62,835 nucleotides of DNA from Burkholderiales bacterium (GTDB taxonomy: Bacteria; Pseudomonadota; Gammaproteobacteria; Burkholderiales; Burkholderiaceae_C), in NCBI GenBank assembly GCA_046094425.1, contig JBJTHI010000158.1, forward strand, positions 1 to 62,835, given 5' to 3'. Positions 47,467 to 50,096 of this stretch are shown here, in pieces (position 1 is the first letter of the stretch; each line of letters opens with the position of its first letter). Below the pieces are notes generated by a model. It saw only the letters and a program-made list of their open reading frames with translations, ran no database searches and was not told the DNA's origin. The translations under genes were made by a program, and so were the position numbers.

Positions 47467-50096
47467 ACCACCACGTTGACCAAACGCCCGGGCACCACGA
47501 TGATTTTTTTCACCGGTTTGCCTTCACAGAATTTGATGCAGTCCGGGTGTGCCAAGGCGGCTGCTTCGATGGCGGTTTTGTCCGCCGCCGCAGGCACCTT
47601 GATGGCACCACGCAGCTTGCCACCCACTTGCAGCATGAGTTCAATCTCGTCTTGCACCAGGGCGGCTTCATCCACCTCGGGCCAGGGCGCATCCAGTAAG
47701 TCGCCGTGCGCTGCGGCGTACCCCAGGTCGCGCCACAACACCCAGGTGGTGTGGGGGCAGGCGGGGTAGAGGGCGCGCAGCAAGATGCCATAACCCTCGC
47801 GTAAGGCATCGTGATCGGCACCACCACCATTGCCTGCATAGCCTTCCAGCGCGTTGAGCAACTTCATGGCCCCAGAGACCACGGTGTTGTACTGCATGCG
47901 CTCGTAGTCGTAACTGATTTGACGAAGTATGTTGTGAACGGTTCGCCGCAGGGCCTTAGCACTCTGTGATATGGCTTGTGTGTTGACAGGTGCTTGTTCG
48001 CTGAGAACATCTTTGTTCTTTGTCGCGCAGGCCCAGACCCGGCGCAAGAAACGATGCGCCCCTTCCACGCCTGCGTCGTTCCACTCCAGGGTTTGTTCTG
48101 GCGGCGCGGCGAACATGACAAACAAGCGCGCCGTATCGGCACCGTATTGGTCGATGAGTTGCTGCGGATCCACGCCATTGTTTTTGGACTTGGACATGGT
48201 GCCCACGCCCTCGTAATCCACGAGCAAACCGTCGCTTTTGCGGCGCGCGCCGTTGATCTTGCCGCCGTCGTCAAAGGTGTTTTCAACCTCGTGCGGCCAG
48301 AAGTATTCGATGCCCCCTTTGTCACCGCGTTTGGACTAAATGTGGTTGAGCACCATGCCCTGGGTGAGCAGCTTGGTGAAGGGCTCGTCTACCTTCACCA
48401 GCTTCAAATCACGCATGACCTTGGTCCAAAAGCGGGCATAGAGCAAATGTAAAATGGCGTGCTCAATGCCGCCGATGTATTGATCCATCGGCATCCAATA
48501 GTCGCTTCCCGCACCCACCATCGCCGCATCATTGCCCGCGTCGCAGTAACGCATGAAGTACCACGACGAATCGACAAAGGTGTCCATCGTGTCGGTTTCG
48601 CGTTTGCTGGGTTTTCCGCAAATCGGGCAGGGCGCGTTCACGAATGCCGCGTGTTTGTGAAGGGGGTTGCCTGAGCCGTCGGGAATGAGTTCTTCCGGAA
48701 GAACCACGGGCAGGTCTTTTTCTGGCACCGGCACCGCGCCATGTTCCACGCAGTGGATGATGGGGATGGGGGTGCCCCAATAACGCTGGCGGCTGATGCC
48801 CCAGTCGCGCAAACGCCAGGTGGTTTTTTTCTCGCCCAGGCTTTTTTCTTGCAGCGCTTTAGCGACCGCGCCCACAGCGACTTGGTAGGGCATGCCGCTG
48901 AAATAGTCGGAGTTGATGGTGACGCCGCGCGTTTTGTCGGCGTACCAGTCTTGCCAGTGGTCGTAGCTGAAGTGTTCACCGTCCACATGCACCGCTTGCA
49001 GCAGGTCGATGCCGTATTTTTTGGCAAAGGCAAAGTCGCGCTCGTCGTGGGCGGGCACGCCCATCACGGCACCGTCGCCATAACTCATCAGCACATAGTT
49101 GCCCACCCACACGGGCACCTTGGCACCGGTGATGGGGTGCTCTACCGTCAGGCCGGTGGGCACCCCCTTTTTCTCTTGTGTGGCGAGCTCGGCTTCGGTG
49201 GTGCCACCGGCTTTGCACTCGGCCACAAAGGCGGCCACTTGCGGACTGAGCGCAGCCGCATGCACGGCCAAAGGGTGCTCGGGGGCCACGGCGCAGAAGG
49301 TGACGCCCATGATGGTGTCGGCGCGTGTGGTGAATACATACAGCTTGCCGTCGCTGATGGTTTGCCCTTGCGCGTCCACAATGTCATGCGGAAACGCAAA
49401 ACGCACGCCTTCGCTCTTGCCGATCCAGTTTTCTTGCATCAGCTTGACGCGCTCGGGCCAGCCCTCCAAATGATGCTGCACATGATCCAGCAACTCGGGC
49501 GCGTATTGCGTGATGTTCAGGTAGTAACCCGGAATTTCGCGTTTTTCAACGACCGCGCCCGAGCGCCAACCGCGCCCATCAATCACTTGTTCGTTGGCTA
49601 GCACGGTTTGATCCACCGGGTCCCAATTCACCACTTGGGTGCGGCGCTCTGCAATACCAGCTTCCAGCATCTTCAAGAACAACCACTGGTTCCACTTGTA
49701 GTAGCTGGGTGAACAGGTGGCGACTTCGCGGCTCCAGTCAATCGCCAAACCCATGGCTTGCATTTGGCCCTTCATGTGGGCGATGTTCTCGTAAGTCCAC
49801 TTCGCTGGCGGCACTTTGTTTTTCATGGCCGCGTTTTCTGCGGGCAGGCCAAAGGCATCCCAACCCATGGGCATGAGCACGTTAAACCCCTTCATGCGCA
49901 ACTGGCGGGCCAGCATGTCGTTGATGGTGTAGTTACGCACATGGCCCATGTGCAGCTTGCCGCTGGGGTAGGGCAGCATGGAACAAGCGTAAAACTTGGG
50001 TTTGCTGAGGTCTTCGGTGACGCGGTAAGCGTCAGCCGCATTCCAGGCGGCTTGCGCAGCACGCTCAATCTCGGAGGGTTTGAAGTCGGGGTTCAT
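47463..50096 (-). CDS. leuS: leucine--tRNA ligase, interrupted by one in-frame TAG (plus-strand cta at 48336..48338)
   Basis: ORFs 48336..50096 and 47463..48227 share one reading frame. Read-through gives a continuous LeuS (...[28 protein letters not shown]...[15 protein letters not shown]...) with a total length, 877 codons, that is typical of LeuS. The HIGH region ([15 protein letters not shown]) lies before the stop and KMSKS after it. Confidence 0.9.

Follow-up and report, generated by a model that had tools for sequence, protein, structure and literature searches.

Leucyl-tRNA synthetase (LeuRS) is essential, so a true null allele of its gene, leuS, should not dominate a population. The leuS gene in the 62,835-nt (62.8-kb) stretch of Burkholderiales DNA analyzed here (the window) is interrupted by an in-frame TAG at codon 587, which raises the question of whether the codon is decoded, whether the enzyme is made in two pieces, or whether the interruption is confined to the deposited sequence. 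An earlier note, made from the sequence alone, had listed three explanations (a base-call or assembly error, a nonsense allele rescued by a suppressor or read-through, and a naturally split LeuRS) without choosing among them. The evidence described below weighs toward the first and lends no support to rescue or split: the most probable origin of the TAG is one wrong base from sequencing or assembly, not new biology.

The gene is represented by two open reading frames, 48336..50096 (586 aa) and 47463..48227 (254 aa from a TTG), which share one frame; translation through both yields 877 codons, just one of them an internal stop (Table 1), in the context CTC AAC CAC ATT TAG TCC AAA CGC, so the earlier claim that read-through yields uninterrupted LeuRS sequence is borne out. 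The read-through product aligns over its full length with 120 database LeuRS proteins at 79–95% identity and with the homologs P0001 and P0002 at 94.5 and 91%, respectively; the 165 residues around the stop match LeuRS of Neisseria gonorrhoeae with E = 3.6e-65 and that of E. coli with E = 1e-47. The domain set of a bacterial class Ia LeuRS is complete (Rossmann core, HIGH and KMSKS motifs, CP1 editing domain, and anticodon-binding domain), and the departure from a bacterial-type LeuRS is the reading frame itself, broken by the one TAG. Upstream of the stop lie the N-terminal half of the Rossmann fold with the HMGH motif, the CP1 domain, and the first three residues of the leucine-specific domain (LSD); the remainder of the LSD, together with the TMSKS loop and the anticodon-binding and C-terminal domains, follows downstream. 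In Pfam, tRNA-synt_1 and the LeuRS editing domain match the part before the stop, and the C-terminal end of tRNA-synt_1 and Anticodon_1 match the part after it. Because the TMSKS loop, 46 codons beyond the TAG, is the KMSKS loop, the catalytic loop and the anticodon-binding part do fall past the stop, as the note had stated. A codon-score scan of all stops in the window that are flanked by open coding sequence ranked the leuS TAG first, ahead of two ordinary gene boundaries (pgk|pyk and dapB|exbB), and rules out a chance pattern.

Table 1. Positions in the window of leuS, its parts, its candidate restart codons, and its neighbors.
Feature	Position	Strand	Remarks
leuS frame, complete, one interruption	47463..50096	-	877 sense positions plus terminal TGA
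In-frame TAG, codon 587	48336..48338	-	aligned residue Tyr in type-A relatives, F574 in E. coli LeuRS
leuS piece upstream of TAG, codons 1–586	48339..50096	-	Pfam PF00133, PF13603, PF09334
HMGH motif, codons 49–52	49941..49952	-	
leuS piece downstream of TAG, codons 588–877 plus TGA	47463..48335	-	PF00133 (C-terminal end), PF08264
LSD, type A, codons 584–631	48204..48347	-	by alignment to E. coli A571–M617
TTG, codon 624	48225..48227	-	first ATG/GTG/TTG past the TAG, 36 codons downstream
ATG, codon 634 (Met of TMSKS)	48195..48197	-	duplex energy -6.4 kcal/mol
TMSKS (KMSKS catalytic loop), codons 633–637	48186..48200	-	by alignments
lptE, directly downstream of leuS	46945..47451	-	Pfam PF04390; same order in L001 and L002
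exbD, directly upstream of leuS	50227..50658	-	Pfam PF02472

With the LSD boundaries of the E. coli enzyme (A571–M617; PMC3643597) transferred by alignment, the TAG is the fourth residue of the LSD. The corresponding residue is Tyr in 89 type-A proteins, that is, in all relatives with the same LSD type, and the codon is TAC or TAT in every type-A locus fetched; the TAG is thus one third-position transversion away from Tyr, in keeping with the note's remark that a single substitution would suffice. LSD codons past the TAG are perfectly conserved type A. About 137 complete leuS genes from public assemblies were all free of internal stops, and all of 157 full-length homologs are continuous, with no split LeuRS among them.

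The surroundings of the gene are equally regular. leuS lies in the canonical order exbB-exbD-leuS-lptE-holA, which is the same in the window, in its nearest relative (L001), and in a further relative (L002); the lptE product is identical to one on a Logan contig of SRR29270162 and the exbD product to one on Logan contig L004. A tblastn search of the window gave a single colinear LeuRS match covering residues 1–877 with one stop, which confirms the earlier reading that the 62.8 kb contains no second leuS, and leuS has no other stop or frameshift. Past the TAG, with the LSD excluded, leuS is 98.2% identical to L001 at the nucleotide level. Residues private to the window number 5 of 586 before the stop and 2 of 290 after it, without excess downstream, so that the change is either very recent or not biological. 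Signs of a decaying pseudogene are missing on the same grounds (a single lesion and no relaxed constraint past the TAG).

In this organism TAG terminates genes in the normal way. It ends at least eight coding segments in the window, including fur and holA, and the fur stop is TAG in the window and L001 and TAA at the same position in L002; of about 56 coding segments, leuS alone is broken by a lesion. At the leuS site, RNA folding downstream of the codon is no better than that of shuffled sequences (MFE z = 0.16), and there is neither an Rfam match nor a PYLIS-like structure. The following base is U, which in E. coli makes a strong termination context, and the window contains no tRNA genes. 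That TAG has become a sense codon here, through a change of the genetic code or as pyrrolysine, has next to no probability: the in-frame TAG is the one point in its favor, and the idea is effectively refuted by the segments that end in TAG, namely holA, fur (TAA in a relative), and at least six others. It also has against it that no other internal TAG occurs, that the position is an invariant Tyr and not a Pyl site, and that the PYLIS-like structure is missing.

The window sequence is metagenome-derived. Logan contigs of SRR29270161 and SRR29270162, whose identifiers run past one million, are 100% identical to 11.5 kb of it, and none of them spans codon 587. The Logan assemblies break inside leuS at 47910/47911, where there is no evident repeat and no difference between the window and L001. 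A second break, at 50180, is explained by a perfect 21-bp hairpin. A literature search for the two runs found nothing. Independent copies were sought in several ways. Exact look-up of the 586-aa truncated product gave no record, and none of 10 guessed LeuRS products was in the collection; these were C-terminal pieces from TTG624, GTG626, GTG631, or ATG634, cut off at the edge of the Logan contig or running to the natural stop, and the intact forms with Tyr, of 738 and 877 aa. When the full read-through, the 151 residues past the stop, and the 586-aa piece were used as protein queries, nothing closer than 95–98% and no 100% fragment came back; the search apparently returns only proteins of about 0.9–1.75 times the query length, so that small fragments may be missed. 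A degenerate 60-nt pattern across codon 587 had 0 matches in JGI metagenome contigs, and the best among the matches listed by protein-guided scans was 81% in genome contigs and 80% in metagenome contigs. In these searches the codon 587 region was thus found in no independent copy, whether with the TAG or as an intact Tyr allele of the same population. Many LeuRS fragments in the database begin near the 3′ edge of the LSD, and a recurrent natural break there was considered; it was rejected, since the two fragments that were checked on longer contigs (P0141 and P0148) both proved technical. Their contigs are long-read, with names from which we read a likely coverage of 2x and 4x; one of the fragments has frameshifts, and the other lies 385 nt from a contig end.

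We put at about two in three the probability that the TAG reflects one wrong base in the deposited consensus of a metagenome-derived contig. The TAG is unique to this sequence and gene and surroundings are otherwise intact; this uniqueness, the preserved constraint on the gene, the use of TAG as a normal terminator, and the lack of any recoding signal favor an error, and we infer that sequencing, not the cell, introduced the change. The error may stem from sequencing, or an equivalent artifact may have entered when the library was prepared or when the contig was assembled or polished. The LeuRS of the living organism, which is a Piscinibacter/Rhizobacter-like bacterium of the Burkholderiales, would be in one piece and have Tyr encoded at codon 587 (by TAC or TAT). 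Technical causes do produce broken LeuRS calls in public assemblies, as P0141 and P0148 illustrate, and the window leuS most likely belongs with the "internal stop" pseudogene calls of draft genomes and metagenome-assembled genomes, with which it shares an intact syntenic housekeeping gene, one lesion, and a metagenome contig, and from which no difference distinguishes it. Several points count against an error. Frameshifts are absent from the window, which also agrees with the independent Logan contigs at every position over 11.5 kb, and this argues against a generally error-prone assembly; the absence of internal stops from about 137 complete leuS genes implies that such errors are rare per gene; and the intact Tyr allele was not found. 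One particular technical source is rejected, namely an assembly chimera at an LSD boundary, because the codon at this position is TAC or TAT in type A and TTC or TAC in types B and C, none of which yields TAG, and the window LSD is otherwise a regular type-A sequence.

If the amber codon is instead real, the cells could be viable through rescue by a suppressor tRNA (chromosomal, plasmid- or phage-borne), by high read-through, or by a second leuS elsewhere, which would make the copy in the window a very young pseudogene. Amber alleles of essential genes live in this way through suppressor tRNAs such as E. coli supE and supF, in laboratory genetics; the likeness lies in a single TAG in an essential gene whose product a Tyr-inserting suppressor would restore, and the difference is that there the suppressor is known, whereas here none is in view, TAG terminates neighboring genes, and no other internal TAGs occur. 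We consider rescue unlikely. The window is otherwise of high quality, without lesions or differences from Logan; since Tyr is the ancestral residue, near-cognate decoding or a Tyr suppressor would restore wild-type LeuRS exactly; and the window covers 62.8 kb of the genome, so that a suppressor or paralog could sit elsewhere. However, neither a tRNA nor a second leuS is encoded in the window, the broken leuS is the syntenic housekeeping copy, and the U after the stop and the absence of a read-through-promoting structure speak for termination; moreover, an efficient suppressor would also read through the TAG codons that end fur, holA, and other ORFs. More doubtful still is a real amber codon in DNA that is not viable or not representative (a dead-end mutant lineage, relic DNA, or a duplicate made early in amplification) and that the assembler followed at a low-coverage position. 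The metagenomic source would allow this, and the Logan break inside leuS suggests local variation or low coverage, but mutation-selection balance would put a lethal allele far below the per-read sequencing error in frequency (a population-genetic argument), which makes such a source much less likely than technical error.

The most specific biological alternative is an enzyme of two polypeptides, residues 1–586 and a β-like piece re-initiated at TTG624, GTG626, GTG631, or ATG634, which would associate non-covalently and lack most of the LSD. In Aquifex aeolicus the α and β subunits of LeuRS (634 and 289 residues) are encoded by two separate genes, each with its own start. This heterodimeric enzyme (Xu et al., 2002; Ma et al., 2006; as cited in PMC3643597 and PMC2377443) is split into its two subunits by an unusually large LSD (PMC3643597). 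The comparison with Aquifex is in part better than the earlier note realized: the stop lies in the same domain, just before KMSKS, leaving KMSKS and the tRNA-binding part on the second piece, and the two pieces, 586 and 290 codons long, resemble the Aquifex subunits in size. In other respects it fails: the window has one gene with one nonsense codon, no start of its own at the break, and a break that is conserved in no relative, and any restart would lose nearly the whole LSD. The first restart codon past the stop is indeed the TTG at 48227, and the loss of about 36 residues that the note had estimated for it is correct; restarts from TTG624 to ATG634 would lose 36–46 of the 48 LSD residues. 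TTG624 has no Shine-Dalgarno-like sequence before it (duplex energy -4.6 kcal/mol). A GAGGG about 10 nt upstream of ATG634 is a point in favor of re-initiation there, but it is dictated by conserved codons for Y-E-G, which are also encoded in relatives with an intact leuS. Real genes here (leuS, exbB, pgk, pyk) likewise have weak or no Shine-Dalgarno sequences, so the duplex energies of the leuS restarts do not discriminate. The scan for promoters and terminators found nothing above chance, and hence no internal promoter in leuS, and the 36 codons between the TAG and TTG624 still have a coding score of +26.3; no comparable stretch in the window scores higher.

Engineered enzymes show how LeuRS performs without an LSD. 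E. coli variants lacking A571–M617 (EcLeuRS-GKDG, EcLeuRS-AAAA, and a ΔLSD-ValRS linker variant) retain 0.55–55% of activity depending on the linker (PMC3643597). The LSD is not strictly required, since replacement by GKDG leaves 55% aminoacylation, but the other deletions retain 0.55–3.5%; and although the missing segment is homologous to window codons 584–631, these variants are covalent single chains with a designed linker. The LSD past the stop is, moreover, perfectly conserved type A, which a segment absent from the product would not need to be, and the split is absent from the 157 full-length homologs and about 137 complete public loci. We know of no test of a two-piece LeuRS without an LSD. 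Taken with the missing start at the stop and the forced GAGGG, these points make a divided enzyme very improbable, even with the stop in the domain where the Aquifex enzyme is split; if real, it would be a split synthetase of recent and independent origin. That a real amber lies in the only leuS of a free-living Burkholderiales bacterium that has survived it, through suppression or read-through to Tyr or through a two-piece LeuRS, is an improbable proposition.

The consequences differ accordingly. If the TAG is an error, leuS of this contig would be annotated as a pseudogene, and checks of bin completeness and essential genes would be slightly wrong. If it is real, it could mean that a free-living betaproteobacterium suppresses amber codons naturally, or be a snapshot of an Aquifex-like split synthetase arising by one nonsense mutation in a dispensable insertion domain; nothing that was found favors either.

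Separately from the stop codon, the LSD of this clade behaves as a polymorphic, exchangeable cassette of three discrete types within a LeuRS that is elsewhere 87–98% identical. The LSD of the window and that of L001 share 44% nucleotide identity, and their flanks 95–98%. This side observation may be more interesting biology than the TAG.

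The reading frame of leuS, the minus-strand gene for leucyl-tRNA synthetase (LeuRS), is interrupted by one in-frame TAG within an otherwise continuous coding sequence. Translation of 50096..47463 gives 877 codons with a single internal stop, at codon 587 (...CAG GGC ATG GTG CTC AAC CAC ATT TAG TCC AAA CGC GGT GAC AAA...). Pfam assigns the LeuRS editing domain and the class I catalytic core to the first piece, apart from the end of that core, which lies on the second piece together with the anticodon-binding domain; HMGH occupies codons 49–52 and TMSKS codons 633–637. LeuRS gave one colinear tblastn match in the window, with no second leuS copy, which fully bears out the earlier note on both the split frame and the single copy. 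The interrupted gene is the housekeeping copy, in the canonical order exbB-exbD-leuS-lptE-holA shared with the loci of the nearest relative (L001) and of another relative (L002). When every stop codon lying between open, coding-like stretches was scored, the leuS TAG came first, followed by the normal gene boundaries pgk/pyk and dapB/exbB.

Features of the leuS region (plus-strand coordinates)
Feature	Position	Strand	Remark
In-frame TAG, codon 587	48338..48336	minus	sequence read directly
Upstream ORF, 586 aa	48336..50096	minus	same frame as downstream ORF
Downstream ORF, 254 aa from TTG	47463..48227	minus	same frame as upstream ORF
Leucine-specific domain (LSD)	48204..48347	minus	leuS codons 584–631
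A368	48993..48995	minus	Val in 18/18 close relatives
G409	48870..48872	minus	Asp in 15/18 close relatives
Perfect 21-bp inverted repeat, 3-nt loop	50163..50207		exbD-leuS intergenic

The nearest database proteins are Piscinibacter/Rhizobacter-like Burkholderiales LeuRS (identity up to 95%). Every homologue sharing the local sequence type has LNHIYS here, and the codon is TAC or TAT in every fetched locus of that type; the TAG is thus one third-position transversion from Tyr, as had been proposed. Codon 587 aligns with Tyr in the Neisseria gonorrhoeae enzyme and with F574 in that of E. coli, whose LSD is bounded by A571 and M617 (PMC3643597), equivalent by alignment to the LSD codons of the window. 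The stop is the fourth residue of this domain, 46 codons ahead of TMSKS. E. coli LeuRS with GKDG in place of the LSD retains 55% activity, and other replacements leave 0.55–3.5% (PMC3643597).

A functional two-piece enzyme has its precedent in the α-β LeuRS of Aquifex aeolicus, which is split inside its LSD (PMC3643597), so the analogy drawn in the earlier note is apt in position. Such an enzyme is nevertheless improbable here. Past the stop, no ATG, GTG or TTG occurs before TTG624, 36 codons downstream, in agreement with the predicted loss of about 36 residues; GTG626, GTG631 and ATG634 follow, and restart at any of these would cost 36–46 of the 48 LSD residues. The 36 codons between the stop and TTG624 contain no start codon yet keep a coding score, and in a set of some 56 coding segments no anomaly of this kind is stronger. 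A single SD-like motif is suitably spaced, the GAGGG ahead of ATG634, and it is set by conserved YEG codons and also present in relatives with intact leuS; SD strength does not discriminate here, true genes in the window having weak SD sequences. Promoter-like sites on the coding strand did not exceed chance. The break has no counterpart among relatives: the 157 full-length homologues are all uninterrupted, and no internal stop occurs in the roughly 137 complete leuS loci taken from public genomic and metagenomic data. Database fragments starting near the LSD were considered as natural breaks and proved technical where checked: they lie on contigs with, to judge from the names, 2x and 4x long-read coverage, and one fragment has frameshifts while the other lies 385 nt from its contig end.

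Technical error is the reading we favor, with a probability of roughly 0.65. No independent copy of the codon was recovered, so the choice between error and a real allele rests on inference. The window is matched at 100% over 50180..60658, 50578..53617 and 46915..47910 by Logan contigs of runs SRR29270161 and SRR29270162, none of which spans the TAG; their ids exceed one million, which points to a complex metagenome as the source of the window. The protein collection yielded neither the truncated product, nor plausible restart products, nor the intact Tyr allele, and the source genome was absent among the matches listed from scans of genome and metagenome collections. LeuRS is essential. A true null allele should be extremely rare in a population, much more so than a consensus error where coverage is poor. 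The lesion is confined to this sequence, stands alone in the gene and is a single transversion away from the ancestral codon. Compared with L001, codons 1–583 show 77 synonymous and 12 non-synonymous differences and codons 632–877 show 7 and 4 (98.2% nucleotide identity); against 18 relatives, five window-private residues precede the stop and two follow it, with no downstream excess. The lesion is therefore either very recent or not biological. The main argument against error is that the remainder of the window is clean. A real allele rescued by a suppressor, by read-through or by a second leuS outside the window is the leading alternative, though an unlikely one, and a real allele in non-representative DNA is less likely still. 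The window offers no sign of suppression or recoding: ARAGORN found no tRNA genes in it, Rfam gave no match at the site, and the 136 nt that surround and follow the stop are no more stably folded than shuffled sequence (z = 0.16). Reassignment of TAG is scarcely credible. TAG is the stop codon of fur both here and in L001, with L002 having TAA at that site; holA and at least six further coding segments also end in TAG.

The private residues A368 and G409, at positions of the editing-domain region that are otherwise conserved, may reflect genuine differences between strains, or may be additional signs of consensus noise in leuS.

The LSD looks like an exchangeable cassette, as in modular recombination of a tRNA-discriminating domain within an essential enzyme. 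Three discrete types, exemplified by loci L001 and L002 and proteins P0001, P0002, P0122 and P0125, are present in LeuRS 87–98% identical elsewhere: A (LNHIYSR...GVGT; 89 full-length homologues), B (LNEAF[SV]R...GWTT; 66) and C (LKGAFFHKP...EMTT; 2), whose spread cuts across overall similarity. The window, of type A, and L001, of type B, share 95–98% nucleotide identity in the flanks and 44% inside the LSD, where 32 of 48 residues differ. Cassette exchange does not explain the TAG: the window LSD is a regular type A, diverging from L002 about as much as the rest of the gene. Since the LSD helps to discriminate tRNA-Leu (PMC3643597), the pattern may merit a separate look.

The intergenic inverted repeat, CCCTCACCCCTACCCTCTCCC aga GGGAGAGGGTAGGGGTGAGGG, occurs once in the window, within a 134-nt stretch that folds at −64.5 kcal/mol (z = −5.7 versus shuffles). 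It may represent a terminator or REP-like element; Rfam gave weak, spurious miRNA matches, and the surrounding region is not alignable with L001. The hairpin would break a k=31 assembly graph, and one matching Logan contig (L004) ends within it, at 50180. Another (L005, SRR29270162) begins exactly at 47910, near leuS codon 729, with no repeat and no window-versus-L001 difference near 47910/47911, pointing either to a variant from a co-occurring strain or to a gap in coverage within leuS in that sample. Across 45749..60114, identity to L001 is mosaic, with blocks of 99–100% (e.g., 54100..55800 and 57100..57860) alternating with blocks of 77–90% (e.g., 58300..58800), a pattern typical of frequent homologous recombination in this population. 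In L002, a PIN-domain gene and a small partner gene, resembling a toxin-antitoxin pair, lie downstream of holA (9436..10325), between holA and cinA.
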